Shown: piece by piece, positions 249-19,668 of the stretch
Position numbering within the stretch: the first letter of the stretch is position 1
Layout: the number at the start of each line of letters is the position of its first letter
Origin: Clostridia bacterium
GTDB lineage: Bacteria; Bacillota; Clostridia; Christensenellales; UBA1242
DNA length: 24,000 bases
NCBI GenBank assembly: GCA_045655005.1
Contig: JAZOOJ010000001.1
Coordinates: 81,288-105,287, forward strand
Direction: 5' to 3'
The notes under the pieces: model-generated
What the model was told of the DNA's origin: nothing
Database searches by the model: none
Seen by the model: the letters and a program-made list of their open reading frames with translations, nothing else
Translations under genes and position numbers: made by a program

Positions 249-255
249 TTTTTTT

Positions 256-4966: not shown

Positions 4967-4975
4967 AGTTTTTTA

Positions 4976-7411
4976 TTAAACGTGGAAACGTTTTGAATTA
5001 AAGAGTAGGGTATATACCAAAGTATGAATTGGAAGATAAAGTGTACAAATTGCTGGCAAATACCATAATAAATGGTTGTAATCAATTTGAGTAAAACTGT
5101 ACAGTCCAAATGGAATATTGACTGCGTAAATAATGACTAAGCATTGAACGGCAAACAGCACAGAGAATATAATTGCAACTTTTGCAGAATACCTAGGTTT
5201 AACTTTCTTGGTTTGATTTAATAAAAAGATTACTGTAAAAACAATTGGAATTAATATCATCGCTCCTAAACAACTAAACAAGAAGAATGATGCAGGAAGG
5301 GCTGAAGGCACATACCTTAAGTCAGTGTAGCCAATTGGTCCAGCGATTAAATACCCAATTACAAGAAGTAGTGATGTTAGTGCAAAAGAGAACCAACTTG
5401 TAAACATTTTAATTTTATTTGGTAAAATATAATTTTTTGTTTCGGCTGTTTCTTTTGGTCTTCTTTCGTAAACTCTAACCTCAATACCTGCATTGTTGAA
5501 ATTTGTCCTTAGGTCATCAATTTTTGTTATCGTTTGTTGGTTGATGTTGTTTGCCTTTGTTGAAGGTGAAAATCTTATTGAGCCATAAGAGGATAGTGTA
5601 TTTAATAATTGACGACTGTCGTTATCTGTGTATTGAGGTACAAAGCTTCGTTTGTTGTCTACAAAAAGGTTCGTTGTAGCATCTGGGTCGTTGTAAATTG
5701 GGTCGTAATTTTGTATTTCAGGTTCAGCATAAACAAAATTGCTTTGCGTTAAGCTTTCGTCTGAATTATTATCAATAATTGAAACTTCATTTCGTGGGTC
5801 TTCGGAAGGTGATAAATATTCATCACGTAAAGCAAGCTCTCTTGCGTTGCTAAATTCTTCATCTCGGTCATAATCATAGGAGTATGAGCTTGTTAATTCA
5901 TCTTCATTTCGTAAAGTGAAATTTTGTGCTTTATAATTTTCAATTTCGTCCTCGGCATCTTCGTTGTTTTCGTCGTCGTCATCATTATTATTGAAGTTAT
6001 TGTAATTACCATAATTAAATCGAACGAAAGGAAGAGGTTCGCCTTGTCCGGAATTATCTTCTTCGGCTCCAAAAATTAATTCAGAAGACTCATCGTCTTG
6101 ATCTTCACTATAACCAAAATTCAGTTTTGTTGAATTAAAATCATTTTCGGGTTCATCTTGCTCCAAATTTGACGGGTCTTCATAGTCTTCGTTTTGTTCT
6201 TCACTTATTAAATCTGACGTCAAATCGCTGTAATTTCTTGAAATTTCAAATTCGTCATCGTTTTCTTCGGCAACGCTGTAAAATGGGGCGTCGTCCAATT
6301 CTTCTTCTAAATCTTCGGAGCTATCAAATTCTAAATCATCGTCAGAATCGTCAGAATTGATGATATTGTCAAATAGTGATGTGTCCAATGTCTGTTCTTT
6401 GGGTTGTTCTTGCGAGAATGTTTCTTCATAGAAGCCTGAGCCACCGACTTCATCTTTTACATTGTCAAAATATGTATTGTTATTTAACTTGTAATCTTTA
6501 AAATTAAATTTGGTAGAATATTTGACATCATTATTCTTGATGACGATATCATCTAATTCATTTTGCGACTCGGTTTGCTCAGATTGGATATCATTTACTG
6601 GCGTTGCTTCATCTTTTACGTTATTAGAAAATATGTTTCTTAATTCTTCACTTTCTTGATTATCAGAAAGTGGGGAGGTTAATATTTGTTCTGGTATTGG
6701 ATTGTCATCATATTGCAAAGCCTTTTCAATCGAGTTAAAAATGTCGAATTGATTTTCGTCAGTATTATAATATTCTTCAACTAGTTTTAAATCTTGCTCA
6801 TCGGTGCCAAAGTCGAGACCTTCATTTTCTTCAATCCCATAAAATTCAGCGAACGGATTAACGACCTTCGTAGATTGAATACCTTGTTCAGAGTTCTCTA
6901 TTTGCGTACTTATAATATTTGTCTGTTCTATTCGTAAATCGTATTGATTTTGTTCTGATGAAGCAGAAGTGCATTGCTCTTGATCAAGTTCTTTTTCTTC
7001 ATCAGTTTTTTTGCGGAATGTTATATTTTCAGTGCCGGTCAAAGGAATAAAGTTTGTTGTTACTTCTGGCAAAACATCGTCGGCATTTTCAGCAATAAGA
7101 TTGTCAATTATTGACCTTGAAGACAGCCACTCACGCATATTATTATCGTACTCTTGACGACCCAAATCGGTCAATTTATAATAATGCCTTTTACCGCCAA
7201 TATCGCTGTTCACCCAGTATGCAGATATAAATCCTTGACCTTCAAGCCGTTTTAAACAACTGTATAATGTAGGTTGCTTTAACTCATAGGTGCCATTGCT
7301 TCTGGTTTCAATTTCTTTTATAATCTCATACCCGTATTTATCTCCGCTTGCAAGCGTTTTTAAAATTATTGTATCCACATGCCCACGGATTAAATCTGAA
7401 TCAATTGCCAT
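4976..7411 (-). CDS. PadR-family winged-helix regulator fused to a long acidic low-complexity linker and a C-terminal multi-pass membrane domain
   Basis: The N-terminus RGHVDTIILKTLASGDKYGYEIIKEI...LKQPTLYSCLKRLEGQGFISAYW...GGKRHYYKLTDLG is a textbook PadR motif. About 550 aa rich in D/E/N/S follow, then roughly 5 hydrophobic helices at the C-terminus. I prefer the ATG at 7411 (AAAGGAG upstream) over the track's TTG at 7447. Confidence 0.8.
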   Translation of the reverse strand: MAIDSDLIRGHVDTIILKTLASGDKYGYEIIKEIETRSNGTYELKQPTLYSCLKRLEGQGFISAYWVNSDIGGKRHYYKLTDLGRQEYDNNMREWLSSRSIIDNLIAENADDVLPEVTTNFIPLTGTENITFRKKTDEEKELDQEQCTSASSEQNQYDLRIEQTNIISTQIENSEQGIQSTKVVNPFAEFYGIEENEGLDFGTDEQDLKLVEEYYNTDENQFDIFNSIEKALQYDDNPIPEQILTSPLSDNQESEELRNIFSNNVKDEATPVNDIQSEQTESQNELDDIVIKNNDVKYSTKFNFKDYKLNNNTYFDNVKDEVGGSGFYEETFSQEQPKEQTLDTSLFDNIINSDDSDDDLEFDSSEDLEEELDDAPFYSVAEENDDEFEISRNYSDLTSDLISEEQNEDYEDPSNLEQDEPENDFNSTKLNFGYSEDQDDESSELIFGAEEDNSGQGEPLPFVRFNYGNYNNFNNNDDDDENNEDAEDEIENYKAQNFTLRNEDELTSSYSYDYDRDEEFSNARELALRDEYLSPSEDPRNEVSIIDNNSDESLTQSNFVYAEPEIQNYDPIYNDPDATTNLFVDNKRSFVPQYTDNDSRQLLNTLSSYGSIRFSPSTKANNINQQTITKIDDLRTNFNNAGIEVRVYERRPKETAETKNYILPNKIKMFTSWFSFALTSLLLVIGYLIAGPIGYTDLRYVPSALPASFFLFSCLGAMILIPIVFTVIFLLNQTKKVKPRYSAKVAIIFSVLFAVQCLVIIYAVNIPFGLYSFTQIDYNHLLWYLPAICTLYLPIHTLVYTLLFNSKRFHV

Positions 7412-7537
7412 AAAGATTTTTGCTCCTTTGATTGAAAATAATGACAATAAGCCTATTATTAATCAATATAATTATATCTTTTTTATTTAAACGATGTCAA
7501 TTAAATAAATCTATCTTGTAAATCTTTTTAATTTTTA

Positions 7538-7567
7538 TTGTACAATATTAAAATTGTTTGTTATAAT
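7538..7567 (+). promoter_or_regulatory. Sigma-A type promoter placed for a leaderless transcript
   Basis: TTGTAC (7538-7543), 18-nt spacer, TATAAT (7562-7567). The ATG at 7574 lies 6 nt after the -10 and there is no SD. Confidence 0.45.
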
Positions 7568-7573
7568 AGCCTT

Positions 7574-8251
7574 ATGATAGAACCAAAGAAGATAATAAGA
7601 CAAAAACGAAAAACTTTGTCCATTACGATAACACCGACTGGAGATGTTATTGTTAAAGCTCCAATAGGCTTGCCAGAAGGTGAAATTTTTAAATTTATTA
7701 ACGAAAAAGAGTCCTGGATTTTGTCTAAATTAAGCAAGGCAAACACCAAAGCTGAAATAAACGATGATTTGATAAAATACAAGGCCTTTTTGCTGTTTGG
7801 GAATAAATATGAGGCCGTGACAGATATTACCGCAAAATCGGCTAATTTTGTAGCAAATAAATGTGTGCTCCCGGTACTTCCTGATAAATCTCAACAATTA
7901 CATAAAGTAATTTTAACATATAAAAAATTGGCGTCAAAGTGGCTTAAAGAAAGAACTCTTGAAATAGCCAGAGTTATAAATGCAAATTTTGATGAGTTTA
8001 AAATTTCAGATACAAAGGGCAGGTGGGGGTGTTGTACGTCTAATTGTTGCATAAATTTAAATTGGCGTGTTGTGTGTTTAGAACCTGCACTAATTGATTA
8101 TGTAATTGTGCATGAATTATGCCATTTAAGAGAAATGAATCATAGTCCTAAATTTTGGGCAAATGTAGAAAAGATATTGCCAGACTACAAACGACGCAGA
8201 AAATCAGTGAAAGAAATGGGCTTTTTATTCCAGATTTATAAAGACGCTTAG
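7574..8251 (+). CDS. YgjP/DUF45-like (M48/SprT-like) zinc metallohydrolase
   Basis: WGCC...INLNWRV...P..LIDYVIVHELCHLREMNHSPKFW...LPDYK matches the DUF45 signature. The start is moved to the ATG at 7574; the track's TTG at 7538 overlaps the promoter. Confidence 0.8.
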   Translation: MIEPKKIIRQKRKTLSITITPTGDVIVKAPIGLPEGEIFKFINEKESWILSKLSKANTKAEINDDLIKYKAFLLFGNKYEAVTDITAKSANFVANKCVLPVLPDKSQQLHKVILTYKKLASKWLKERTLEIARVINANFDEFKISDTKGRWGCCTSNCCINLNWRVVCLEPALIDYVIVHELCHLREMNHSPKFWANVEKILPDYKRRRKSVKEMGFLFQIYKDA

Positions 8252-8352
8252 TTAGTTGATTAGTTAGTATTTAGTAATAATTGATTAAAATTGTGTACCC
8301 CCTTGAAATTTTTAAAGAAATATAATATAATTAGTGTCCTGAGGAGATTTAT

Positions 8353-8853
8353 ATGAATAAAGAAATTAAGAAAAATAGAGAATTAGTACAAGGATTAGAT
8401 TCTAAAATGATTAATTGTATCAAGGTGTCTACTTATGGGCCTAATTCAACTGCAATATATGCATATCTTGTTGATGGAAGAATTTTACAGATATCAAGAC
8501 CAATATATAATTTTATGTTGAAACAAGATATAACAAGACGTTTTGTGGCAAAAAATTTCCCTGAAATGACTAGAAGAGCTTTAAAAACTATGGGTGGAGG
8601 CATCGCTTTAGTAAATTTACACAATGTAAAAGAGTTTGATGTTATGTCTTGTGGTGATAGAGTATCTGCCTGGGTTCGTGCTGTATTTAAAACTCAAGGG
8701 ACAGAAGATGGGACCACAAGCCAAATTGCAAGACTTTACACAGTGCCTGCTTATATGCAAAGCAACGAGTTGGAAAGATTGTATGATTTATTAGCTGCTC
8801 AACCTAATAAGTTTGAAGAAAATAGTGATAGCGATAATGATGAAAGATTATAA
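8353..8853 (+). CDS. Hypothetical protein (166 aa)
   Basis: ORF with SD GAGGAG 7 nt upstream and an acidic C-terminal tail. No family recognised. Confidence 0.7.
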   Translation: MNKEIKKNRELVQGLDSKMINCIKVSTYGPNSTAIYAYLVDGRILQISRPIYNFMLKQDITRRFVAKNFPEMTRRALKTMGGGIALVNLHNVKEFDVMSCGDRVSAWVRAVFKTQGTEDGTTSQIARLYTVPAYMQSNELERLYDLLAAQPNKFEENSDSDNDERL

Positions 8854-8874
8854 TTGAAGAAAGTTAAATAAAAA

Positions 8875-8904
8875 GCACATACTTACTTAGTATGTGCTTT
8901 GTTT
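8875..8904. terminator. Bidirectional terminator between convergent genes
   Basis: 9-bp stem GCACATACT/AGTATGTGC, loop TACTT, A-run upstream and T-rich tract downstream. Confidence 0.8.
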
Positions 8905-10289
8905 TATTCTTCATCGTTTGAAATAGTTGGCAGGTCTTCGATAATTTCAAGTTTTAATTGAGTTATTTTTTTGCTTTCTATTGCAAGGATTGTAAATACA
9001 AGAGTAATTGCTTTTGTAACAAAATTCCCGTGTTCGTCAATTTGTTCGTCATTGGTGTTAACTTTTACTACGTCGTTTATATCGCAAAGTTCTTCGGACT
9101 TTTCAAAGATAAGACCTCCAACCGTTGTATAATTTGTTTCAGGAATATGCTCAATTTCAAGTTCTTCAAACAATTCAGTTAATTCGGTATCGGCGTCTAT
9201 AATATAAGTACCATCTTCAAGACGTTGAATATTATCGTGGTCTTGTTCTTCATCGTGTTCGTCATAAATTTCACCAACCATACATTCAATACAGTCTTCA
9301 AGGGTTACAAGTCCGCTCGTTCCACCTTGTTCGTCAATTACTATTGCTAAGTGCTTTTTCGCTTTTTGTAATTCACGTATTACATCATCAAGCTTCATTT
9401 CCTCAGATATAAAATGAGGGGTTGTCATTAATTTTTTAACACTTACTGGTTTAGTTGATGTAAGTAGGGCAGTAAAGAAATCCTTCTGATTAAGCACGCC
9501 AACTACATTATCTCTTGTACCGCTGTAAACAGGAAGTCTTGAATATTGGTATTCAACGAATAATTTTTTCACCGCTTCGATATCGTCATTTTCATCGATA
9601 AATATTACATCTTTTCTGTGCGTCATAACATCATAAGCAGATTGTTCGCCCAAACTTATTGCACCTTGTAGAATTTCTTTATTGTCGTGGTCAATGACAC
9701 CTTCTTCTTCCATAGTGTCAATAATGCTTTCAAGTTCAGTTTCTGTAACTGTTGGAACGACATCGGTTTCTCTTCTTTTTGTAATTTTATGTTGCAACCA
9801 GTAGAATGGGTAATAGATAGCGGAATATTTTAGCAGAAAATATACTCCGCCTGAGAATTTCAACGCATATTTTTCAGGGTTTGCTTTTGCCTTTGCCTTT
9901 GGTAAAATTTCACCAAAAATCAATATGATAATAGTTAACACTACGGTATTAAGTAGGTTGGAAATTGTTGGATTTAAAATAAATTTACCAAATAAATAGC
10001 CTGCAATTGTGGTACAAGCAATATTTACAAGGTTATTAAATGTAAGAATACAAGAAAGTGTTCTTTCAAAATTTTCGGTTATATAGATTGCTTTTCTTGA
10101 TCCTTTACGTTTCTCTTCGGCCAATGTTTTAAGCCTTAGCGAGTTACTTGAACTATAAGCGGTTTCACTGGCTGAGCAGAACGCCGAACAGAAAATCAGA
10201 ACAATTATGCTGAATAATAGGAAAATATCTCCTGACGAAATCTTTCCTAAAAAGTTTTGTGTTAAAATAATTGTACTCGGGACAACCAT
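8904..10289 (-). CDS. CNNM/HlyC/CorC-family transporter (DUF21 + CBS pair + CorC_HlyC)
   Basis: N-terminal TM helices, CBS-pair region, HLAIVIDEQGGTSGLVTLEDCIECMVGEIYDEHD, and a C-terminal TVGGLIFEK-type transporter-associated domain. SD AGGAG. Confidence 0.9.
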   Translation of the reverse strand: MVVPSTIILTQNFLGKISSGDIFLLFSIIVLIFCSAFCSASETAYSSSNSLRLKTLAEEKRKGSRKAIYITENFERTLSCILTFNNLVNIACTTIAGYLFGKFILNPTISNLLNTVVLTIIILIFGEILPKAKAKANPEKYALKFSGGVYFLLKYSAIYYPFYWLQHKITKRRETDVVPTVTETELESIIDTMEEEGVIDHDNKEILQGAISLGEQSAYDVMTHRKDVIFIDENDDIEAVKKLFVEYQYSRLPVYSGTRDNVVGVLNQKDFFTALLTSTKPVSVKKLMTTPHFISEEMKLDDVIRELQKAKKHLAIVIDEQGGTSGLVTLEDCIECMVGEIYDEHDEEQDHDNIQRLEDGTYIIDADTELTELFEELEIEHIPETNYTTVGGLIFEKSEELCDINDVVKVNTNDEQIDEHGNFVTKAITLVFTILAIESKKITQLKLEIIEDLPTISNDEE

Positions 10290-10365
10290 TTTTTATCTCC
10301 TAAATTTGCCTATCTCAATTTGGCTTGACTAAAGCAAGTCAGGTAGGTAAATTTTATTGCCATAT

Positions 10366-10394
10366 ATTATACACCAATTTTCAAAAATTGTCAA
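10366..10394 (-). promoter_or_regulatory. Consensus sigma-A promoter for the CNNM gene
   Basis: On the minus strand: TTGACA, 17-nt spacer, TATAAT. The leader of about 70 nt contains a 7-bp hairpin (10325-10344). Confidence 0.6.
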
Positions 10395-10423
10395 GTTTAC
10401 CATATATTATATGTATTGTTGAC

Positions 10424-11038
10424 CTAAAATTTACGAAGTAATCCAGTTACGACTCCTAAAATTGTGCAATTTTCAACAATGATTGGTTCCATAAAATCAT
10501 TTTCAGGTTGAAGTCTTATATGCCCGTCTTCTTTATAAAATCGTTTAACTGTTGCGCTGTCATCGATTAAAGCAACAACAATTTCACCATTTCTTGCAGT
10601 ATTTTGCTTTTTGACGATTATTTTATCGCCATTAAAAATGCCTGCATTTATCATACTTTCACCTGATACCGTTGTCGCAAATAATTCATCTGAATTAAAT
10701 AATGATTTAGGCAAGCACAAATTTTCTTCCAAATTCTCTGTCGCAAGAATTGGAGTTCCTGCAGCAACCGTTCCAAGCAGTGGGGCGTAGGTTATTTCTG
10801 ATGGATTTATTACAGATTTTTTTATGCCAACAACTTCAATCGCACGATTTTTTGTGCTTGAACGCCTAATATGACCTTGTTGTTCAAGTTTATCAAGATA
10901 ATAGTGGGCAGTGGCAGAAGAACTTACATTTAGTTCTTTGCAAATTTCACGCACAGTAGGTGGATAACCAAACTGATTTACAAAATTGGTTATAAATTGC
11001 AATGTTTTATTCAATTTATCTTGCGTAGTCTTTGCCAT
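10424..11038 (-). CDS. lexA: LexA repressor (S24 peptidase)
   Basis: N-terminal LexA DNA-binding domain (FGYPPTVREI...SSSATAHYYLDKLEQQGHIRR), Ala-Gly cleavage site (VAAGTP), catalytic Ser in SGESM and Lys in VKRF. The ATG at 11038 has SD GAGGGA; the track's upstream start is unlikely. Confidence 0.95.
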   Translation of the reverse strand: MAKTTQDKLNKTLQFITNFVNQFGYPPTVREICKELNVSSSATAHYYLDKLEQQGHIRRSSTKNRAIEVVGIKKSVINPSEITYAPLLGTVAAGTPILATENLEENLCLPKSLFNSDELFATTVSGESMINAGIFNGDKIIVKKQNTARNGEIVVALIDDSATVKRFYKEDGHIRLQPENDFMEPIIVENCTILGVVTGLLRKF

Positions 11039-11094
11039 AAAATCCCTCAAAAAATGTGTAGTCAAATAACTCTTGGAATTATTATACTACACAA

Positions 11095-11122: not shown

Positions 11123-11152
11123 AAAATTTAAACAAAATTTTACCTATTATTG

Positions 11153-11181
11153 TTGAACAAAAATTCATCTTGTGTTATAAT
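11153..11181 (+). promoter_or_regulatory. Promoter of the His/Cys-rich gene with overlapping SOS-like box
   Basis: TTGAAC (11153-11158), 17-nt spacer, TGt-TATAAT (11173-11181). GAAC-AAAA-ATTC (11155-11166) overlaps the -35 and has one core mismatch to the Cheo box. Confidence 0.6.
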
Positions 11182-11212
11182 GCTGGGTAATAAATTTAGG
11201 AGTGTATTAAAA

Positions 11213-11533
11213 ATGGAAGAACAACATCATCACCACGATTGCGATTGTCACAACCATACACAACATAGCGATTGCAACTGCGGTTCTCATTCACATCAAA
11301 ACGATAAAAAGGATATTCAAAAGAAAAAATATAAAGATTTTGAGTTTGACGACGAAACCGATTTTACCTGTGATTTAGACCCAACAAAAATATGTGATAA
11401 TTGCGGAAAGTGCCTGGATGCTTTTAATACAGATAAAGAGGGCTATGTGCAAATTCAAATCGATAAAATCGAAAAAGGTGATAGCACCCTTCAAGACCTT
11501 TACAAAATGTATGGGCTTGATGATAATCAATAA
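11213..11533 (+). CDS. Small His/Cys-rich protein (106 aa), unknown function, probably metal-binding
   Basis: ATG at 11213 with SD AGGAG. The N-terminus is MEEQHHHHDCDCHNHTQHSDCNCGSHSH, with a second Cys cluster CDNCGKC. No TM segment. The track's TTG at 11150 lies inside the promoter. Confidence 0.75.
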   Translation: MEEQHHHHDCDCHNHTQHSDCNCGSHSHQNDKKDIQKKKYKDFEFDDETDFTCDLDPTKICDNCGKCLDAFNTDKEGYVQIQIDKIEKGDSTLQDLYKMYGLDDNQ

Positions 11534-12568
11534 TTAATCTCTAAGTTTTACTTTGTTTGCAACGTTTTTACGTAAGTCTTCTGAAATGGCAGCATAGTGT
11601 TTTTTAGTGGTGTTTACATCTTTATGCCCCAAAACGTCTGCAACGATGTAAATATCTTGAGTTTCACGATAAAGTTCAGTACCATACGTACTCCTCAATT
11701 TATGAGGAGTAATTTTTTTTAGTGGGGTGGTTGCACTTGCATATTTTTTCACAAGTAATTGAACAGTCCTAACATTAATACGTCTGTTTTGAAGTGATAA
11801 AAAAACCGCAGGCTCATTTCTTGCTTGCTTATTTTCACTACGTCTTACTAGGTATGAAAGCAGAGCATCACGAACTTCATCTCCAAAATATACAATTTCT
11901 TGATTTCCGCCTTTTCGGGTAATCTTTATGCCGTTCACATCAAAATCCAGATCATCAAGATTAAGACCCACACACTCTGAAACACGAATTCCTGTACCAA
12001 GCATTAGCGTAATAATTGCGACATCTCTTTCTTTTGTGTATTGATGAAAGGCTTTCTCTCGGTCGGTAAGCGAAGACCCTGCCTCTGTAATGGTAATAAG
12101 TTTTGCGACTTCGTCTGATTCAAGTTTAATAATTGGCTTTTCATGTAGTTTGGGCATTTTTACTTTTTGAGTTACATTCTCATTAATCATTTCTTTGTTA
12201 TAAAAATAAGTGAAAAATGACTTAATTGTAGACAATTTCCTAGATTTACCTTGCTCTCCATTAGAATATTCTTTATTATCATATGAATAATGCGACAAAT
12301 AACTAAGAAAATTCTCTATTGTCTGAGCCGAAATCACATTCAAATCTGCTGGTTCAAGTTGACGAAGATCTTTATCAAACAATTCTGTTTCTGTCATTAG
12401 ATATTCAAAAAACACCCTGAGGTCATAGGCATAATTCAGCCTGGTGAGTGGGGAAGTAGATTGCTCAACACCTACAAAAAAGATTTCTGCAAATATGGGC
12501 AATTCTTTTAAAATTTCACGAGTTTTTAATATGCAGTTGTCTGCACGAGTTTCAAAATAATTTTTCAT
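11534..12568 (-). CDS. Tyrosine recombinase, XerS-like single Xer-type recombinase (about 344-349 aa)
   Basis: Catalytic signature: GTGIRVSE (Arg), TPHKLRSTY (H-x-x-R), LGHKDVNTTKKHY (His/Tyr). The size, the N-terminal domain and the ITRKGGNQEIV segment resemble streptococcal XerS as I recall it. Its stop abuts the stop of the convergent upstream gene (TAA|TTA). The start is ambiguous: ATG 12568 (leaderless geometry) or GTG 12583. Confidence 0.8.
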   Translation of the reverse strand: MKNYFETRADNCILKTREILKELPIFAEIFFVGVEQSTSPLTRLNYAYDLRVFFEYLMTETELFDKDLRQLEPADLNVISAQTIENFLSYLSHYSYDNKEYSNGEQGKSRKLSTIKSFFTYFYNKEMINENVTQKVKMPKLHEKPIIKLESDEVAKLITITEAGSSLTDREKAFHQYTKERDVAIITLMLGTGIRVSECVGLNLDDLDFDVNGIKITRKGGNQEIVYFGDEVRDALLSYLVRRSENKQARNEPAVFLSLQNRRINVRTVQLLVKKYASATTPLKKITPHKLRSTYGTELYRETQDIYIVADVLGHKDVNTTKKHYAAISEDLRKNVANKVKLRD

Positions 12569-12574
12569 AAATTT

Positions 12575-12603
12575 ATTATACACAACTCCTAAGTTATTTA
12601 CAA
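12575..12603 (-). promoter_or_regulatory. Promoter of the recombinase gene
   Basis: Minus strand: TTGTAA, 17-nt spacer, TATAAT, then 6 nt to the ATG at 12568. Confidence 0.45.
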
Positions 12604-12613
12604 ACGATTTTTA

Positions 12614-12628
12614 ATCTTTTCGCAAAAT
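12614..12628. promoter_or_regulatory. Candidate recombinase-binding (dif-like) site just upstream of the recombinase promoter
   Basis: ATCTTTTCGCAAAAT equals the reverse complement of the 34-bp att repeat (ATCTTTT-AAGACTT-CGCAAAAT) with the central 7 nt absent. It shares the exact 10-mer ATTTTGCGAA with both att repeats. Confidence 0.3.
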
Positions 12629-12906
12629 ACTTTTTTGGTTTTATATCAAACTAAATAATTTAAGCACAAACATAAATAAATTATTATAACACAGAGAGAA
12701 TTTCAATATTTATACAAAAACTATTCTGTGCCTGTTATGTAATGATATTGTGTGAGAGAGAGATATATAGCAAAAGATATGTATAAAACACGCATTGATT
12801 TTGTTTAATGTATTTTTAAAGCGTTCTGTCACAGAATACAACAAAAACAATGATCAAATTATTAAAGAAATTCTGAGATAAATACATTGATAATGGATAA
12901 CTAAAC

Positions 12907-12959
12907 TTTGTACGATTTCTGACGGAATGAATAAAAATTTTCTGAGCAAATCGTACAAA
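12907..12959. repeat. Perfect 12-bp inverted repeat with a 29-nt loop in non-coding DNA
   Basis: TTTGTACGATTT (12907-12918) and AAATCGTACAAA (12948-12959). Each arm is adjacent to a CTGA. Confidence 0.7.
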
Positions 12960-13140
12960 AATTTGTGTGGAAATATTATAATAAATACACAACATATTTT
13001 ATAGAGTTTACTCATGTAAAACTAATACGATTTATTATAAATTGGTGAATCAAAATTATATAAACAATAGTAAAATTAACGACAGACTTGGAAGATGTCA
13101 AAATTTTAAGATTTTCTAGCAAATAATCATAAATTAAATA

Positions 13141-13162
13141 AAATGCCAAAAAAATGCCAAAA
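13141..13162 (+). repeat. Tandem 11-mer x2 (AAATGCCAAAA)
   Basis: Two perfect adjacent copies 30 nt to the left of the left att repeat. Confidence 0.7.
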
Positions 13163-13191
13163 TTTGAGTAATTTTCGCCTTATAATTTCGT

Positions 13192-13225
13192 AAAATCTGC
13201 ATTTTGCGAAGTCTTAAAAGATGTC
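13192..13225 (+). repeat. Left 34-bp direct repeat (candidate attL)
   Basis: AAAATCTGCATTTTGCGAAGTCTTAAAAGATGTC; 33/34 identical to 20217-20250. Confidence 0.85.
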
Positions 13226-13253
13226 TTTATTATAAAAAAGTTCTTTCCTATTG

Positions 13254-14102
13254 TCAAGCAAATTCTTCATTATTTTTAAAAAAATTTATTTGACGCATAA
13301 TTCTTTCGAATATCTCTCTTGAAATCCCTACCCTACTGGCTGAATTTTGCACAAATGGTTGAAGACTTTTCTGTTTATCTTTTCCGAGTTGTTTAAAATA
13401 AAACATAGGATCATCTGACATTGAAAGTAATTTCAAAAGGACTAAATCAGTTTTTGAAAGTTTAACCATATCAAACATATCTAAGTCTTTAAAAAAAACA
13501 ACTTCTGGAAATTGTGTCATAAATATATCATAATCAATCTTATTTGACGTTATTTCAAGACGAGTCAATGAATAGTCAAGTTTACTTTCAATAGTTTTAT
13601 TGTACAGTTTACAACGACCAAATTCAGAATCAGATCCGAGATATTCAGTAACATTTTCGCCAGAAGAGTCAAATGAATGACGCTTATGAACTCTTCTATC
13701 TTTCTTTAAATAAACCAAAGAACGCTTACAAGGAATATCAATCGAAATATCATAATTAACCATCTCGCAATCTTGCCAGCGTCTGCGAAGAAAAAATAAG
13801 ACCGAACTTAATTCACGAGAATAACCAACTTTATTAGGGTTGAACTGAACAAAACAACTAAAGAAATCTTTTTTTGAAAGTCCATTAAAACAAAGACCAA
13901 CTGAAAAAGAATTTTCTTTTATATATATCGTAAATAATTCACGATAATTAAATGGTTTAACCGAAAAAGAATGCTTATGCTCAAATCTTCTTAAATAGTC
14001 CATTATTTCAAAACAAGATTCTTGTGTAATTTTGAATTTATAACGAACCATATCAAGACTATAAATCAATTTATTTTCAGACGTTGGAAAATAATAAGAT
14101 AA
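13254..14102 (-). CDS. Rolling-circle replication initiator, Rep_trans-like (gene II equivalent)
   Basis: Motifs reminiscent of PF02486: LDMVRYKF near the N-terminus, VQFNPNKV, YLGSDSEFGRCKLYNK and LTRLEI. I prefer the ATG at 14102 (SD AGGTG 4 nt upstream). The track's ATG at 14222 overlaps a TATAAT and has no SD. Confidence 0.6.
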   Translation of the reverse strand, partial: LSYYFPTSENKLIYSLDMVRYKFKITQESCFEIMDYLRRFEHKHSFSVKPFNYRELFTIYIKENSFSVGLCFNGLSKKDFFSCFVQFNPNKVGYSRELSSVLFFLRRRWQDCEMVNYDISIDIPCKRSLVYLKKDRRVHKRHSFDSSGENVTEYLGSDSEFGRCKLYNKTIESKLDYSLTRLEITSNKIDYDIFMTQFPEVVFFKDLDMFDMVKLSKTDLVLLKLLSMSDDPMFYFKQLGKDKQKSLQPFVQNSASRVGISREIFERIMRQINFFKNNEEFA

Positions 14103-14498
14103 CATATCACACCTATCCACCCTACTATTTTTTACTAAAAATGCGGAAAACCGCACGACTTGGCACCTTGTTAGACGTAGGTGCGAAAAACGTTTTTTAT
14201 TTTTTATTTTGTACGTAGACATTATAGTGTTTACGTAGTCAAGATAAAGAACCTTGACGAAAGGCTAATCAAGTGCGTAATGCACTATGGATGAAACTTT
14301 AAATGTAGAAACTCGCATTGCTACCTTGAGAAAAACTAAAACCTTGACATTTTAACCTAACATTAGGGCATCGCCCTAATAACCCAATAACGCAAGGCTC
14401 AGAATTGCAAGCAGTAGAAAAGACCTTTAAAATTACTTGATTTTGATATTGTAATTGTGATAGAATTGTAAAAAAAACAAAAAGGGAAAAATAAAAAA
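14103..14498. other. Structured intergenic region: candidate replication origin, packaging signal and divergent promoters
   Basis: Hairpins TGCGG-AAAA-CCGCA (14142-14155), GCACCT/AGGTGC (14163-14184), AGTGC-GTAAT-GCACT (14272-14286) and ATTAGGGC-ATC-GCCCTAAT (14362-14380). Palindrome AAAACGTTTT. ACGTAG x3 (14175, 14213, 14233). AACCTTGAC x2 (14250, 14340). Confidence 0.5.
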
Positions 14499-15182
14499 GT
14501 GGGAAGAAGAAAACAAAAAAAACAAGATACAGCTTCAGCAATAGGAATACTATTTGTTATAGCTATTTGTATTGCGTTGATAAAAATAATAGCACCAATA
14601 CTCATTGCAACAGCAGTAATTGTAATAATTATTAAAATTGTAAAAAAAATCAAAGCAAAAAAAACATATACAAACAAAGAAAAAATATATTACGAAGATC
14701 TAAATGAAGACGAACCTATTGACAATCTACAATTTAAAACTAATAATGAGACATATATTGATAAAGAAAAATACCAATTAAGCAAAAAAAAATACACCAA
14801 GAAAGAAGAATATCAAACAAATTGTGAAAAATATTATTACAAAATAATAAAAGAAGAATTTGAAACTAAATATGATATATTCCCACAAGTTCCATTATCA
14901 TCTGTCATAAAAAAGAATAAAGACTTTGAAAAACAATATCAAAACGAACTATTCAGAATAATAGATTTTGGAATTTTTGAGAAAGAAACACAAAAACCCT
15001 TATTGCTAATAGAAATTAACGACAAAACACATAAACAGCAAAATAGGATTAAAAGGGACAATAAAATAAAAGAAATCTGTAATAATGCAAACATAAAATT
15101 AATTACATTTTGGACAGATGAAAATAAAAATAAAGAGTATATTATCAATAAAATAAAAAACACATTAGATTACATTTTATAA
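14499..15182 (+). CDS. Membrane-anchored DUF2726 (restriction-endonuclease-fold) protein; accessory gene on the opposite strand
   Basis: GTG start with AAGGGA upstream. N-terminal hydrophobic helices, then YDIFPQVPLSSVI...FRIIDFGIFEKETQKPLLLIEINDKTHKQQNRIKRDNKIKEICNNANIKLITF, which fits the DUF2726 pattern. Confidence 0.6.
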   Translation: MGRRKQKKQDTASAIGILFVIAICIALIKIIAPILIATAVIVIIIKIVKKIKAKKTYTNKEKIYYEDLNEDEPIDNLQFKTNNETYIDKEKYQLSKKKYTKKEEYQTNCEKYYYKIIKEEFETKYDIFPQVPLSSVIKKNKDFEKQYQNELFRIIDFGIFEKETQKPLLLIEINDKTHKQQNRIKRDNKIKEICNNANIKLITFWTDENKNKEYIINKIKNTLDYIL

Positions 15183-15192
15183 TATTTTAGGG

Positions 15193-15218
15193 GGGAGCGA
15201 CATAAAGTCGCTCCCTTT
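15193..15218. terminator. Bidirectional terminator between the DUF2726 gene and the convergent phage operon
   Basis: 9-bp GC-rich stem GGGAGCGAC/GTCGCTCCC, loop ATAAA, followed by TTT. Confidence 0.8.
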
Positions 15219-15232
15219 AACCCTCAAAAAAA

Positions 15233-15652
15233 TTAAAAAAATATAAACTTGGCGACCCAAATAACATAAATAATTACTTGTAAAAGGCCTCTTGCACAAA
15301 ACTCAATAACAGAATAAAACCCAGTTGCCATGTTAAAAAAATCACGAATAAAATTAAAAGCACCCCAGTCGGAAACTATCTCAAGAGAATCAAACCACGT
15401 CATAGACATTGAAACACTGGGAGCATCAGCAACGGATGAAAGCAGACCACCAAAAGTTATAAAACCATTACCAAGTAAAGTCTTAAATAAAGAAACAACA
15501 AGAACAAGACCAAGAACAAGAGAGAGAACATTAAAACCCTGCCTAACATCATTAGATGACACATTAGAGTCTATTTTTTCTTTTGGTTTTTTTTGAGTAA
15601 CAGTAACATTAGAACCACCACGTGAAATCACAGTAATTTCTTTTTTTGACAT
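15233..15652 (-). CDS. Phage membrane protein (139 aa), pVI-position candidate
   Basis: ATG at 15652 preceded by GAGGTGG. Several hydrophobic helices. Last gene of the minus-strand operon. Confidence 0.6.
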   Translation of the reverse strand: MSKKEITVISRGGSNVTVTQKKPKEKIDSNVSSNDVRQGFNVLSLVLGLVLVVSLFKTLLGNGFITFGGLLSSVADAPSVSMSMTWFDSLEIVSDWGAFNFIRDFFNMATGFYSVIEFCARGLLQVIIYVIWVAKFIFF

Positions 15653-15663
15653 AAACCACCTCA

Positions 15664-16626
15664 CTAAATTAAAAGCCTAACAACTGAAACTATAAAAGCC
15701 AAAGTTAATAACCCAGTAAAGAACCCAGCAAGATTAACACCAAGCAACTCAAAATTAAACAAACCCATAAATGCTTGCACCGGAGCATCTATAACAGCAG
15801 AAATCAAACTAAAGAAAGTATAGCTATTGGAAGCGTTTGCACCTGCTTGATAACCATTGTTATAGCCTATAACTTCGCCAGCTCTAGACCCTGCAGAATA
15901 ACCATTATCATAACCGACATTTTCACCAATTGAATAACCGGAATCATATCCTTCCTTAAAAACATCATCATCTAAAAATGTGCCGACTAAATAATAATAT
16001 CGGTCAGTATATTCAAAATACGAAGCAATATGAGCATTTTCACCGGTAATATCGCAAGGTATGCGAATAGAAAAGACTTTATCATTTTCATCATAGTAGT
16101 CAATGTAAGTATATATACGCATAGTGTGAGTATTTAACATAGATTCAGTGCTATAAATACGAACTTTTTTTACAAAACAGTTAAAACCATAATCACAACC
16201 GAGTGCATATGAAAAATAGTAATGATTAGCATTATTAACAGTCTGATGAAAAGAAGTATATGTAAGAGGCTCACCCTCATTACTAAAATTAACTTGTTGT
16301 GTAGTATTTACTGAATCATAACCGATACCAGGATAAAAATATTTAAATTCAATATCCGACTCAATATAGCCATTGTAATTATTCAAATCAACTTCAAAAT
16401 TAAAAAAGCCTAATGCATAACCGACACCTTCTTGGATTGAACTAGAAACTGTAACAATTGAACTACCATTAAAAGAATAACCAGTAGAGACTTCATCAGC
16501 ACTAGCAATCATTGTTTTAGGTTGAAATTTGGGTAAAAAAGGGCTTATACAAAGCATCAAAGCACTTGCACAAGCAATAAATATACTAGATATTCTTTTA
16601 ATTATTTTTCGTTTGTTTTCGACCAT
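15664..16626 (-). CDS. Secreted, C-terminally anchored protein with Gly/Tyr-rich repeats; pIII-like adsorption protein candidate
   Basis: N-terminal signal-like segment (IFIACASALMLCISPF), repeats GYDSGYSIG / VGYDNGYSAG / IGYNNGYQAG, and a C-terminal TM (FFTGLLTLAFIVSVV). The start is ATG 16626 or GTG 16632. Confidence 0.55.
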   Translation of the reverse strand: MVENKRKIIKRISSIFIACASALMLCISPFLPKFQPKTMIASADEVSTGYSFNGSSIVTVSSSIQEGVGYALGFFNFEVDLNNYNGYIESDIEFKYFYPGIGYDSVNTTQQVNFSNEGEPLTYTSFHQTVNNANHYYFSYALGCDYGFNCFVKKVRIYSTESMLNTHTMRIYTYIDYYDENDKVFSIRIPCDITGENAHIASYFEYTDRYYYLVGTFLDDDVFKEGYDSGYSIGENVGYDNGYSAGSRAGEVIGYNNGYQAGANASNSYTFFSLISAVIDAPVQAFMGLFNFELLGVNLAGFFTGLLTLAFIVSVVRLLI

Positions 16627-16753
16627 AAACACCCCGCTCCGCCAGTTGTTTTTTAATCAACCTTTGTTTTAAAAAATATTGAATAACACCAAGTGCTATA
16701 TTTTCCAAAAGGCAACCAATAAAGGCACCAATTATAATTAAAATTAGATTCAT
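16598..16753 (-). CDS. Small single-TM protein (51 aa), not in the supplied ORF track
   Basis: MNLILIIIGAFIGCLLENIALGVIQYFLKQRLIKKQLAERGVYGRKQTKNN. Its ATG overlaps the upstream stop (TAATG) and its 3' end overlaps the pIII-like start. Confidence 0.5.
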   Translation of the reverse strand: MNLILIIIGAFIGCLLENIALGVIQYFLKQRLIKKQLAERGVYGRKQTKNN

Positions 16754-17133
16754 TATTTAGACACCATCCTTTTTAAGATTTCTATTTCGTTATCGATTAT
16801 ATCAAAACATTTATCTCTATCAAACGCACCACCAACAATATCATCTGAAATATTATATACTATTGGATATTCTTTGCTTTGTATTAAAAACAACTCTTTC
16901 AATTTCTTTAACAGTACTACTGCGAACAAGATTTTGTCTTTGTTTCTATAAATTTGTAGGTATTTATTACATTCTGTTAAATCTTTGATTTGTTCATCTT
17001 TCTCTGCAAGTTTTACTTCTAAGTCGGCAAATTCTTTTCCTAAGCACTCTACAAAATGAATTGTAACCGAAACACCTTGATTATCAACTACTTCATAATT
17101 ACCATTTTTAAGATTTTCTATTGCTTTATTCAT
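16753..17133 (-). CDS. Phage hypothetical protein (126 aa), coiled-coil-like
   Basis: ATG 10 nt after GGGAG, tightly packed in the operon. No family recognised. Confidence 0.65.
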   Translation of the reverse strand: MNKAIENLKNGNYEVVDNQGVSVTIHFVECLGKEFADLEVKLAEKDEQIKDLTECNKYLQIYRNKDKILFAVVLLKKLKELFLIQSKEYPIVYNISDDIVGGAFDRDKCFDIIDNEIEILKRMVSK

Positions 17134-17135
17134 TT

Positions 17136-17462
17136 TTACTCATCTCCCTGCATCTTCTTTAAACAGTTATCACAAACGACTTTACGTTTGTATTCATAAA
17201 ACCAATCCGTCCAACAACAGAAACCACATAACTCACATTTACATTGACCGTTTCCAGACAACTTAGTAGGTCGATAATCAGTTAACTCAGCCTCTAAATC
17301 TTTAATTTTTTTTATGTGTTTTTGATGCCACATCTTATACCAATCTAAAGCATCTAATAAATCATCAACTGCAGATTGATCAAAGATGTAAGATTTATCA
17401 AAATCAGTAGCACCTATAGGAATACATTCATTTTGAACATAATCATCATAATTACGTTTCAT
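17136..17462 (-). CDS. Phage hypothetical protein with a Cys cluster (zinc-ribbon-like), about 108 aa
   Basis: CKCELCGFCC...CDNC. I prefer the ATG at 17462, which has the same GGGAGATGAGTAAAA-ATG junction as the next gene, over the track's 17471. Confidence 0.6.
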   Translation of the reverse strand: MKRNYDDYVQNECIPIGATDFDKSYIFDQSAVDDLLDALDWYKMWHQKHIKKIKDLEAELTDYRPTKLSGNGQCKCELCGFCCWTDWFYEYKRKVVCDNCLKKMQGDE

Positions 17463-17463
17463 T

Positions 17464-17817
17464 TTACTCATCTCCCTGTGTGAATTTATTCATCCATTTT
17501 TTTGCAAGTTTTGGTATAAAAAGAAGAAAATCTACAAAAATATGGGCTATAAATACATTAATGTAATAAGTGAAAAATACTAGCAAATCTGTATTTTTAA
17601 ATAATGGCAAAATACCATCAACACCGAATATCTGACTTAAACTTGTATACGCAATAGAATTCTCAGCAATATTAAGTCCAATAGAGTCAAAAATTGTACC
17701 AAATTCAAAAGCAGTACCACCTTTAAATAAAAGTATCAAAAAGGCAAATATAGGTATAAAATACACTATATTCCAAAATATGGTCTCAGCCATATGATTA
17801 ATCGTTCTTTTTCTCAT
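17464..17817 (-). CDS. Phage integral membrane protein (117 aa)
   Basis: SD GGGGTGGTG, three hydrophobic helices. Its start overlaps the end of the ATPase gene by 20 nt. Confidence 0.65.
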   Translation of the reverse strand: MRKRTINHMAETIFWNIVYFIPIFAFLILLFKGGTAFEFGTIFDSIGLNIAENSIAYTSLSQIFGVDGILPLFKNTDLLVFFTYYINVFIAHIFVDFLLFIPKLAKKWMNKFTQGDE

Positions 17818-18622
17818 CTACACCACCCCGCAACCTAGATTTTCTAAAACTGACTATGTTATTTGCTTTCAAAGTTTTAGCAGTAATAACATTCTTTTCT
17901 TCTTCAAGTCCGTCAGTCAAACTTGAATAACAGTAACAATCAAAATACTTCCAAGTCTTTTTTGGTATAATTACTCGTCTTAACTTTTGCTCCACATCCT
18001 CATCTTGAACGTTTATGGTCGACTTATCGTCTGAATATCTACATTCTTGAACATGAGCCAAAAGGAAAAATGGAATCCATTTTGTCAAATGATGTACATA
18101 AATATACTCTGACAAGCAACGCTTAATTGAATAATGAGTATCTGAAATACATTGAGTATCATATATAATTACACCACCCTTAGTTGAATGACCTATCAAT
18201 TTATTAAATAGTAACAATTGCTCGTTTAACTCCATATCTTTAATCAATTGACTATCAGCAACCAAAGACGCTTCACAAATATAAATTACCGAACCATAAA
18301 CAAAACGTGTTTTTCGTGTCAATAAATCCGTAGTTATTGGTACATAAGGAACCGATAACGGAATATTCGAGTATAACAAAGGCAATTCAAGTAAAGGTTT
18401 TTTAAACAACTTGCGGAAAAAGTTATTAATCTTAACACGCCTTGTACGTCTTTTAAACTCAGACATAGCAATCGCAACACTCAATGTAGATTTACCGCAT
18501 TTCACACCACCGCTAACGAGAGCCATAGCTCCAATTTTTGGAACTTTAAATTTTGATTGTATTTTTTTGATAATAAATAGCACAACGGCTATTATAATTA
18601 AAATTAAAATTGAATTATCCAT
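17798..18622 (-). CDS. Zot/pI-like P-loop morphogenesis ATPase with an N-terminal TM helix
   Basis: N-terminal TM (aa 5-18), Walker A GGVKCGKST (aa 38-46), Walker-B-like VIYICEAS, and GHSTKGGVIIYDTQ, which resembles the Zot-family RH.G.D.i.iTQ segment. Confidence 0.55.
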   Translation of the reverse strand: MDNSILILIIIAVVLFIIKKIQSKFKVPKIGAMALVSGGVKCGKSTLSVAIAMSEFKRRTRRVKINNFFRKLFKKPLLELPLLYSNIPLSVPYVPITTDLLTRKTRFVYGSVIYICEASLVADSQLIKDMELNEQLLLFNKLIGHSTKGGVIIYDTQCISDTHYSIKRCLSEYIYVHHLTKWIPFFLLAHVQECRYSDDKSTINVQDEDVEQKLRRVIIPKKTWKYFDCYCYSSLTDGLEEEKNVITAKTLKANNIVSFRKSRLRGGVDEKKND

Positions 18623-18629
18623 TAATTTT

Positions 18630-18664
18630 AAAGAATAAAAGGCTAGATTTTTATGTCTAGCCTT
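18630..18664 (-). terminator. Rho-independent terminator immediately after the coat-like gene
   Basis: Perfect 9-bp stem AAGGCTAGA/TCTAGCCTT (18639-18664), followed on the minus strand by TTATTCTTT. Confidence 0.8.
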
Positions 18665-18676
18665 ATAAACTTGATA

Positions 18677-18928
18677 CTATCTATTTCTTGCACCAAGACT
18701 TGTGAAGAAATTAAGTACCCAGCGACATAGGCCCAAACCTAACGAAATCGCTGCAAAAGCAATTATGCAAGTACCTAGAACAGATAGTCCGGCAGTGCCA
18801 CCCTCAGCAGTTGTGAAGAAGATGCTTTGAGCCAAGGTTGAAAGCCCTTCACCAACACCAGTAGCAATTCCAGAAATACCAGAAACTAAGATTTCAATAA
18901 TTGCAGTAACTAACGCAGTACCAGTCAT
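18677..18928 (-). CDS. Small hydrophobic protein (83 aa); major coat protein candidate
   Basis: Strongest SD in the element (GGAGGTG). Hydrophobic N-terminal segment, central TTAEGGTAG, a TM helix, then a basic C-terminus (RWVLNFFTSLGARNR). A terminator follows. Confidence 0.5.
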   Translation of the reverse strand: MTGTALVTAIIEILVSGISGIATGVGEGLSTLAQSIFFTTAEGGTAGLSVLGTCIIAFAAISLGLGLCRWVLNFFTSLGARNR

Positions 18929-18990
18929 TCTTTTACACCTCCATAAATTATTTTTTTATATAAGAGGTGCGAAACTGATTTATCTTCCTA

Positions 18991-19021
18991 GTGTGAGTAG
19001 GTCAATAGACCAGTCTCACAC
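18991..19021. other. Imperfect hairpin in the gap upstream of the coat-like gene
   Basis: GTGTGAG-ta-GGTC-aata-GACC-agt-CTCACAC. Confidence 0.5.
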
Positions 19022-19043
19022 ACTTTTATAACCACACTAAAAA

Positions 19044-19181
19044 TTAATCAGATTTACTATCAGAATTTTCTGTATTTTCTTTTAATTGTTTACGTTTTCT
19101 AACATCTTTAACTATTCCAAAAATCTGATAACCGACAAAAGCAAGTAAACCAACAACTAATAAGACACTAATTATTTTCAT
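19044..19181 (-). CDS. Small single-TM protein (45 aa), not in the supplied ORF track; minor coat (pVII/pIX-like) candidate
   Basis: MKIISVLLVVGLLAFVGYQIFGIVKDVRKRKQLKENTENSDSKSD. SD GAGAGGTG. Its start lies inside the end of the preceding small ORF. Confidence 0.55.
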   Translation of the reverse strand: MKIISVLLVVGLLAFVGYQIFGIVKDVRKRKQLKENTENSDSKSD

Positions 19182-19335: not shown

Positions 19336-19337
19336 TA

Positions 19338-19538: not shown

Positions 19539-19582
19539 AAAAATACTCCTTCGGTCATATAGACCATTTTTAAAATTTTGTT

Positions 19583-19630: not shown

Positions 19631-19668
19631 GATTTATAATATCTACCCCACCTCACAGGTAGTTATTA

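Follow-up and report, generated by a model that had tools for sequence, protein, structure and literature searches.

How does a filamentous prophage that encodes no recombinase come to sit at a defined position in the chromosome of its host? The question is posed by a 24,000-nucleotide stretch of DNA from a Clostridia bacterium of the Christensenellales (positions 81,288 to 105,287 of contig JAZOOJ010000001.1, assembly GCA_045655005.1; hereafter the window), in which an inovirus-like prophage body of about 7.0 kb (13226-20216, with nearly all genes on the minus strand) lies beside a gene for an XerS-like tyrosine recombinase, referred to here as xer (11534-12568, minus strand). The hijacking of host Xer recombinases by filamentous phages is textbook knowledge; it has been worked out in Proteobacteria with the XerC/XerD pair and once, for a non-phage element, with the single recombinase XerL. 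An earlier note on this DNA had proposed that the prophage exploits Xer, and had sought the target in a 15-mer at 12614-12628. Comparison of the window with related loci retains the first part of this proposal and moves the target: the integrase-less prophage very probably sits in a dif-like site of its host in the terminus region, about 0.6 kb upstream of the gene for an XerS-like and presumably single Xer, which would be the catalyst of integration. The site comprises 28 bp (about 34 bp with its outer positions), with near-palindromic arms of 11-14 nt around a 6-nt centre. Integration in the manner of integrative mobile elements exploiting Xer (IMEX) is well supported in silico, and the co-location and co-variation of gene and site point to Xer as the catalyst.

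The first premise of the earlier note, namely that the element brings no recombinase of its own, was confirmed: no recombinase, integrase, or transposase domain was detected with Pfam, NCBIfam and/or PHROGs in any open reading frame (ORF) of at least 50 amino acids (aa) between the repeats that bound the prophage, and no integrase is listed in its annotated complete relatives. These direct repeats (13192-13225 and 20217-20250, both read on the plus strand) are 34 nt long, identical at 33 of 34 positions (97%), and spaced by 7025; their longest exact run measures 24 nt, whereas 100 shuffles gave runs of 14.2 nt on average and of 17 nt at most. Each copy falls within a 28-bp site composed of 11-nt inverted arms and a 6-nt centre, copy 1 taking in the centre together with one complete arm, 4 nt of the opposite arm, and 13 nt past the complete arm. 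The site at the xer-proximal junction (site B, 13185-13212, plus strand), which reads ATTTCGTAAAA TCTGCA TTTTGCGAAGT or, in the orientation of xer, ACTTCGCAAAA TGCAGA TTTTACGAAAT, is intact, with no mismatch to the pattern TTCGYAAAA-N6-TTTTRCGAA. The site at the xer-distal junction (site A, 20210-20237, plus strand), ACTTAACAAAA TCTGCA TTTTGCGAAGT, is a hybrid with two mismatches to this pattern, both located in the phage-side arm, where the invariant CG is gone. A good arm, a centre common to both sites, and a degenerate arm are combined in the same way in L171, L128, L134, L093, L179, L182, and L183 (L numbers denote loci and contigs of the comparison). The Xer target is the att repeat itself, within 13185-13212 and about 0.6 kb upstream of xer, and not the 15-mer at 12614-12628.

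The earlier note had suggested aligning the locus with phage-free relatives in order to define attB. Two such relatives, L174 (GCA_017938565.1, Xer 92% identical) and L175 (90%), carry the same flanking genes, no phage, and one intact 28-bp site each where the prophage junctions lie in the window. This attB reads TATTCGCAAAA TGCAGA TTTT(A/G)CGAAAT (TATTCGCAAAA TGCAGA TTTTACGAAAT in L174) and is located about 570 bp upstream of xer. Homologues of the genes at 20948-21823 and 20467-20865 lie on one side of it, and xer together with a small Cys/His-rich ORF on the other, the flanks on both sides of the L174 site being homologous to the outer flanks of the two junctions in the window; lexA is seen beside attB in L175 only, the contig of L174 ending before it. 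A third relative, L171 (Xer 89% identical), harbors a closely related prophage (Zot-like protein 96% identical) at the same place, again with a hybrid distal and an intact proximal site. The free form of the phage is represented by contigs L177 and L176, about 90% identical to the prophage at the DNA level, of which L176 is circular with a 30-nt terminal overlap. In L177, attP reads ACTTCGCAAAA TGCAGA TATTGCGTTTA, i.e., the arm and centre of the window followed by a degenerate second arm; across it the Rep end meets the opposite end of the phage, as also in L176, and its flanks are the phage-side flanks of the L171 prophage junctions. Sites resembling attP are also present in L176, L135, and L094 (circular) as well as in L090 and L084. 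With attB, attP, attL, and attR recovered, the complete set expected for site-specific integration at dif is available in silico.

As the earlier note had pointed out, 0.6 kb separates the element from the recombinase gene on its left, which encodes a full-length tyrosine recombinase with Phage_integrase and SAM-like N-terminal domains (Pfam) and the catalytic residues R..K..HxxR..H..Y. Among NCBIfam models, XerS fits this protein best (189.7 bits over positions 8-357 of the 360 in the model, short of the equivalog cut-off of 267), followed by XerC (172; cut-off 335), XerA (166), and XerD (153.5; cut-off 330). The mechanical ORF (11534-12583, minus strand) extends to a GTG at 12583. The true start is, however, probably the ATG at 12568, which yields 344 aa, since a 344-aa protein in the protein collection is 100% identical to Xer and a TATAAT is located 6 nt upstream; exact-protein look-ups with the 349-aa and 344-aa versions and with a 291-aa flank protein returned no record. 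More than 580 relatives of Xer occur in a collection with one genome per species, all of them from Clostridia, of which the best 80 (53-75% identical) served as the comparative set; PGAP names such relatives merely 'tyrosine-type recombinase/integrase'. In 48 of the 80 loci xer is linked to lexA, which lies at 10424-11065 (minus strand) in the window (NCBIfam TIGR00498, 197.8 bits, above the cut-off), and xer is therefore regarded as a resident host gene rather than phage cargo. The possibility that xer belongs to the phage was rejected on the same synteny, on its position outside the repeats, and on its presence at empty sites.

A conserved site upstream of this gene was revealed by an arm-based search for the 11-6-11 arrangement, the full 34-mer being absent from the 80 xer loci at up to seven mismatches. 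A site of the form T(A/T)T(T/G)CG(C/T)AAAA-N6-TTTT(G/A)CG(A/C)A(T/A)(A/T) is present in about 45 of the 80 loci, always upstream of xer at a distance of 39 bp to 4.7 kb. Its arms have an invariant CG and invariant A/T tracts, and the palindrome reaches about 3 nt past each 11-mer, giving arms of ~14 nt. As to its position relative to the replication terminus, which the earlier note had proposed to check by GC skew, 35 of the 39 loci with enough flank change from positive skew on the left of the site to negative skew on its right, and the window shows the same change of sign. Of 30 full-length loci, 15 have their cumulative-skew maximum no more than 1.5 kb from the site, compared with 4.3 expected, and in four loci the two lie within 22 nt of each other. 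Because of this terminus signature and of a linkage between gene and site that is typical of XerS and XerH, the 11-6-11 site is taken as the probable chromosomal dif of these bacteria. Such linkage is a hallmark of the known single-Xer systems XerS and XerH (PMC9765430, PMC5357621). The genes that separate dif and xer vary: a seryl-tRNA synthetase gene in many species (L004, L005, L006, L008, L009, L011, L022, L023, and others), a truncated paralogue resembling the N-terminal domain of this synthetase in L012, L014, L015, L017, and L179, and a gene for a CD_NTase_C-like protein of ~300 aa in L032, L035, L182, and L183.

Several observations weigh against the reading of this site as a dif that is served by a single Xer and exploited by the phage. 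The support is comparative throughout, with binding and catalysis by Xer deduced from it, and the comparison covers the window and the fetched loci and contigs; a separate XerC/XerD pair with a canonical dif elsewhere in the host genome is possible. At 189.7 bits the recombinase misses the XerS equivalog (NF003462) cut-off of 267, the cumulative-skew maximum of the window is found at about 9010, 4 kb off the site, and in many of the related free phage contigs the thresholds applied leave a lone good arm or nothing that can be recognised as a site. Furthermore, phage and host are identical over 13 nt past the arm in this prophage only, a feature for which a simple Xer crossover gives no explanation. 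Finally, Kono et al. 2011 (PMC3025954) predicted an XerCD-type dif for 97% of the Firmicutes in their study. Together with scores under the XerS, XerC, and XerD equivalog cut-offs and the generic name assigned by PGAP, this prediction would suit an alternative in which site and recombinase constitute a separate conserved module—e.g., a domesticated integrase with its att site—while XerC/XerD resolve dimers at a canonical dif elsewhere, so that the phage uses the recombinase and yet is no true IMEX. Such a module is, however, difficult to reconcile with a change of skew sign at the site in nearly all loci that could be scored, with a cumulative-skew maximum there far above chance, and with a gene that is conserved in more than 580 species, in lexA synteny and linked to its site in the manner of XerS and XerH, and the alternative is accordingly considered improbable.

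A second alternative starts from the 15-mer itself (ATCTTTTCGCAAAAT, 12614-12628), which the earlier note had read as a Xer site left by stacked or decayed insertions. It does share the arm TTTTGCGAA with both att copies, as had been noticed, and this arm occurs only three times in the 24-kb window; with 0.75 occurrences expected and three reached in 7 of 100 shuffles, the number is not significant. The further statement that the 15-mer equals the reverse complement of att with 7 nt removed holds arithmetically for copy 1 only and is regarded as coincidental, the shared unit being the 9-11-nt arm. A derivation of the 15-mer from att by deletion was likewise rejected, as relatives conserve only the arm and an AAAAG flank at this position. 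The core of the 15-mer is a solitary Xer arm, TTTTGCGAAAA (12617-12627, minus strand), which contains the exact arm 9-mer. Of 76 loci, 33 have a solitary arm, defined as one outside any 11-6-11 site, between -120 and -10 relative to xer, where 5.8 would be expected (p about 1e-17); such arms cluster at -30 to -50 and often abut a TTGACA box or sit just upstream of a TATAAT. In the phage-free L002 the arm is found at the same position (92.6% identity over 27 nt), and the phage-free L174 likewise carries one at the same promoter position, the surrounding sequence in both being close to that of the window. In the window it lies next to a predicted xer promoter, TTGTAA-17-TATAAT (12575-12603, minus strand; 10/12 in a consensus scan). 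Judged by its recurrence, the solitary arm is a conserved feature of the xer promoter, separate from att, and would most plausibly act as an operator for autoregulation by Xer; autoregulation through a site near the promoter has already been proposed for difSL-xerS (PMC1914069). The layout of this promoter, TATAAT followed by 6 nt and the ATG, is shared by L174. Since TATAAT ends 6 nt before ATG 12568 in the window and likewise in L174, the xer mRNA is probably leaderless; an AGGAG upstream of xer lies within the promoter spacer, out of ribosome-binding distance from the ATG.

Between the 15-mer and the dif-like site extends the AT-rich, gene-free DNA that the earlier note had described (12629-13184; 556 bp, about 25% GC). 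It contains no credible ORF, no Rfam hit, and no terminator-like site, and it shows no similarity to the spacers of L174, L171, and L002 or to any collected phage locus. Gene-free AT-rich spacers are also present in phage-free relatives (500 bp in L174, 3536-4036; 830 bp in L002, 9120-9950). They are unalignable even between strains with Xer 89-92% identical (range compared 71-92%), whereas the other side of dif aligns at about 67% between these relatives. This hypervariability makes past insertion and decay within the spacer possible, as is a turnover of insertions on the spacer side. A case in point is L017, in which small membrane ORFs and a DUF2726 homologue lie between a full site (5418) and a partial site (7788, with a 7-nt spacer) upstream of xer (5418-7815); the interval resembles the decayed remains of an inovirus caught between a pair of Xer sites. 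Mirrored insertions between an intact dif and xer also exist (L179, L096). For the window, however, several observations speak against reading 12614-12628 as the Xer/dif site or as what is left of an att, and the 556-bp spacer as the remains of stacked insertions: the phage-free L002 and L174 have the half-site in the same place together with an ORF-free spacer, most solitary arms lie in an orientation that a decayed hybrid would not leave, no remnant of the local centre TGCAGA is seen next to the half-site, and the spacer matches no phage sequence collected. A decayed insertion at this place is therefore unlikely, and a conserved promoter arm beside a separate att site is preferred.

The reading of the prophage as an insertion at dif gains weight from its recurrence. 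Scans of IMG/VR with the Zot-like protein, as a single protein or as an alignment, gave no confirmed relative, and exact scans of IMG/VR and the metagenome collection with a 21-mer and a 24-mer of att returned nothing; further insertion cases were obtained from a scan of the metagenome collection with the Zot alignment combined with context look-ups. Related inoviruses occupy the same site beside xer in at least six other host lineages. In L128, L131, and L134 the order is ATTTCGTAAAA GCTGTA TTTTGCAGATG, inovirus, ATTTCGTAAAA GCTGTA TTTTACGAAAT, then 185 bp, xer, and lexA. The polarity of L093, L182, and L183 is that of the window, and that of L179/L180 and L096 is mirrored, with the hybrid site beside xer and the intact site distal. 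The centres of free phages correspond to those of hosts: TTACAC in phage L135 is the centre of host L059, TATTCGTAAAA TGCAGC in phage L090 matches the site of host L036, and GACAGC in phages L094 and L152 is the commonest host centre. Where the two junction sites of one prophage differ, the differences locate the exchange: in L093 their identity stops 2 nt into the centre, and in L134 they differ at centre position 1, which together place the crossover at the border of the conserved arm. At least for L093 this suggests a single strand exchange completed by replication, as in CTXphi and VGJphi. Among the 'bajarodino' and Inovirus genomes of GenBank no full 11-6-11 site was found at up to four mismatches, and a one-arm search revealed a consensus arm with a degenerate arm in the Rep-proximal intergenic region. 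In addition, TATGCGCAAAA GTCTTC, a consensus Xer arm with a centre resembling the xxCTTC centres of hosts, is conserved inside the rep coding sequence of five circular phages (L085-L089, bajarodino viruses); it may be an attP embedded in rep or plain coding conservation.

These data also bear on the idea that another enzyme, either a helper integrase supplied in trans or the rolling-circle Rep, acts on the 34-nt repeat and that the likeness to a Xer site is incidental. The rep gene of the phage does adjoin the att site, and the host genome extends beyond the window. Nevertheless, the att core displays the design of a tyrosine-recombinase site, a 6-nt centre between inverted arms, the xer-linked site of dozens of species has identical arms, the attP centre of the phage co-varies with that of the host across lineages, and insertions in exactly this site are known from at least seven host lineages; this explanation is highly unlikely.

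The 13-nt identity beyond the arm merits separate consideration. On the phage side of the proximal junction, 13213-13225 (GACATCTTTTAAG in xer orientation) copies the host flank at the distal junction (20238-20250), which reads gacatctttaaag in the window and gacactttcaaag at the empty site of L174. L171 shares 19 nt only, and attP of L177 lacks the extension. Gene conversion between the two sites and capture of host flank are both possible origins of the stretch. The 34 nt of identity, 13 of them host-like flank within the phage copy, exceed what is usual for a Xer-type core and might seem to point to RecA-dependent homologous recombination. Entry of the prophage by that route is scarcely credible given that related integrations share only 18-20 nt (L171, L093, L182), too short for efficient RecA, that identity always ends inside the site at the degenerate arm, and that attP of the closest phage (L177) is without the extension.

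Integration at dif by Xer could proceed as follows. First, the replicative form of the phage would present an attP that mimics dif, with a consensus arm, the host centre (TGCAGA in the orientation of xer), and a second arm devoid of the invariant CG. In a second step, the host Xer, bound to the good arm or arms of each, would synapse this attP with dif, and strands would be exchanged at the border of conserved arm and centre. The junction would then be completed either by a second exchange or by replication. The product would be an intact dif (13185-13212), still usable for dimer resolution, and a crippled hybrid (20210-20237) that should disfavour Xer/FtsK-driven loss of the prophage. Stabilisation by a crippled site has been proposed for GGI and LME-1 (PMC5357621, PMC9765430).

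The element itself is an inovirus-type filamentous prophage, an assignment that is made here from its genes and rests on a Zot-like ATPase, a Rep homologue, an 83-aa hydrophobic ORF, and circular Inoviridae relatives. The Zot/pI-like ATPase, a P-loop protein of 274 aa (17798-18622, minus strand), matches 'Zonula occludens toxin' proteins in 12 complete circular Inoviridae records with 38-60% identity in tblastn. These records (4.7-8.5 kb, annotated by their depositors) comprise Inovirus sp. MT135295 and 'bajarodino viruses'; a thirteenth matches weakly, at 25%. The Pfam Zot model matches neither the protein of the window nor its relatives; an AlphaFold2 model (pLDDT 67) matches Inoviridae Zot models in BFVD with E values of 1e-7 to 5e-4. 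Directly upstream of the Zot-like gene lies the coat-like 83-aa ORF (18677-18928, minus strand). Rep (322 aa; 13254-14222, minus strand), which adjoins att, is 34% identical to the replication protein of Dulem virus 72. Membrane or minor-coat-like ORFs (15233-15664 and 15664-16632, minus strand) and small ORFs (16598-17817 and 19168-20127) complete the set, and for almost all phage proteins no family was found with Pfam, PHROGs, or PADLOC. Circular relatives of 5-7 kb include L176, L135, and L094, with terminal overlaps, and GenBank genomes deposited as circular. A gene with a Pfam match to DUF2726 (14499-15182, plus strand) is nuclease-like, has no PADLOC match, and is probably cargo of this phage group; homologues also occur in the prophages L171, L182, L126, and L091 and in the L017 remnant. 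Contig L105 contains two complete tandem copies of a related inovirus (1731-10699, period 5725 bp; 11.3-kb contig without host flank), which could be a prophage array, a replicative multimer, or an assembly artefact. At the phage end next to the proximal junction there is a perfect consensus promoter, TTGACA-17-TATAAT (13229-13257, minus strand; 12/12), which is predicted to be active and is kept upstream of attP in the free contigs L176 and L177. It reads across attP into the phage operon in the circle and across dif toward xer in the lysogen, and integration would thus part it from the phage operon and point it at the host xer.

Of the remaining host genes, the small Cys/His-rich ORF between lexA and xer (11150-11533, plus strand) has no match in Pfam or any other family. 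It has tblastn matches in 10 of the 80 loci, with 83-92% identity over residues 74-126 in L171, L174, and L175, and its C-terminal 50 residues are kept (58-92%) beside xer or lexA in many relatives. On the far side of the prophage, a 132-aa membrane ORF (20467-20865, plus strand) and a 291-aa ORF (20948-21823, minus strand) are 66-67% identical at the aa level to the genes that directly precede the single dif site and xer in L174 and L175. Three tRNA genes (89-337, plus strand; Rfam RF00005) at the left end of the window are unrelated to the att site.

Taken beyond the window, a wider picture appears moderately probable. A branch of gut Clostridia with more than 500 species, including Christensenellales, Borkfalkia, and their relatives and for the most part uncultured, would resolve chromosome dimers by an unrecognised single XerS-like recombinase acting on a 28-34-bp palindromic-armed dif near its own gene, with a solitary promoter arm that is probably autoregulatory. 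An unclassified clade of gut inoviruses would be the IMEXs of this system, inserting in either orientation with attP centres that co-vary with those of the hosts. These inoviruses appear to constitute the first family of Xer-hijacking phages to be described from gut Clostridia; in the published literature (full text), no report of an IMEX was found for XerS-like systems or for Clostridia. If correct, the reading would extend IMEX biology to Gram-positive gut anaerobes and to an XerS-like single recombinase, supply attB, attP, attL, and attR sequences for direct testing, and identify dif and Xer, previously unannotated, for hundreds of uncultured Clostridia species. Possible uses include location of the terminus in metagenome-assembled genomes, Xer-cise-type marker removal, and prediction of gut inovirus hosts from the attP centre. 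It would also contradict a proposal, considered below, that close dif-xerS linkage protects against IMEX insertion.

The closest precedents are the IMEX filamentous phages that use XerC/XerD at dif, namely CTXphi, VGJphi, and TLCphi of Vibrio and XacF1 and Cf1c of Xanthomonas, which likewise are integrase-less inoviruses. As in these proteobacterial phages, insertion into dif at the terminus leaves one intact dif and one modified site. The attP described here resembles that of TLCphi in being a dif mimic whose centre and one arm are well conserved and whose second arm diverges, and in some relatives the border of the conserved arm marks the end of identity, as it does in the single-exchange modes of CTXphi and VGJphi (PMC5357621, PMC4246890). 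Despite these similarities, several differences exist. The host belongs to the Gram-positive Clostridia, and one XerS-like protein is presumed to act in place of the XerC/XerD pair. Insertion occurs in either orientation relative to xer (window versus L179 and L096) because the arms are near-palindromic. In addition, almost all phage proteins are without a Pfam or PHROG family, and no XafT-like activator has been identified among them. With respect to the site itself, the canonical dif of XerC/XerD has two different arms bound by two paralogues, in contrast to the near-identical inverted repeats seen here beside a recombinase that falls short of the equivalog scores.

Single-recombinase systems offer further parallels. 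In Legionella, the att site of the mobile element LME-1 likewise revealed an unrecognised single-recombinase dif system, XerL/dif, with long inverted-repeat arms and with a modified and a wild-type dif left after insertion, thought to stabilise it (PMC9765430). XerL is, however, unlinked to its dif (>400 kb, compared with 0.04-4.7 kb here), LME-1 is no inovirus, and experiments have demonstrated the system of Legionella. XerS/difSL of Streptococcus and Lactococcus (PMC1914069, PMC2965235) represents the best-scoring family, with a full-length alignment (356 aa versus 344 here, at a score below the equivalog cut-off), a gene linked to a site upstream of it, and a comparable arm motif (TTTCCGAAAA in difSL, TTCGCAAAA here). 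While difSL measures 31 bp with an 11-bp centre, the site described here has a 6-nt centre and symmetric arms of 11-14 nt and is often separated from xer by hundreds to thousands of bp that hold serS or other genes. According to a speculation by Le Bourgeois et al., the linkage of dif and xerS guards against IMEX insertion; in the loci compared here, in contrast, insertions are common. XerH/difH of Helicobacter and Campylobacter is similar in having a lone recombinase encoded close to its site and a 6-nt centre flanked by A/T-tract arms, but stems from a different phylum, and Xer has no significant sequence match to XerH structures (E <= 1e-5), its top PDB hits being XerA and XerD. Among phages of Gram-positive hosts, the inoviruses of Propionibacterium (B5), Clostridium (CAK1), and Enterocloster (PMC10061712) are likewise small filamentous prophages, found in Firmicutes, with flanking direct repeats. 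The Enterocloster study describes such repeats and makes no mention of Xer, a recombinase, or an integrase (PMC10061712), whereas the att site of the prophage described here is identified as a dif-like site of its host.

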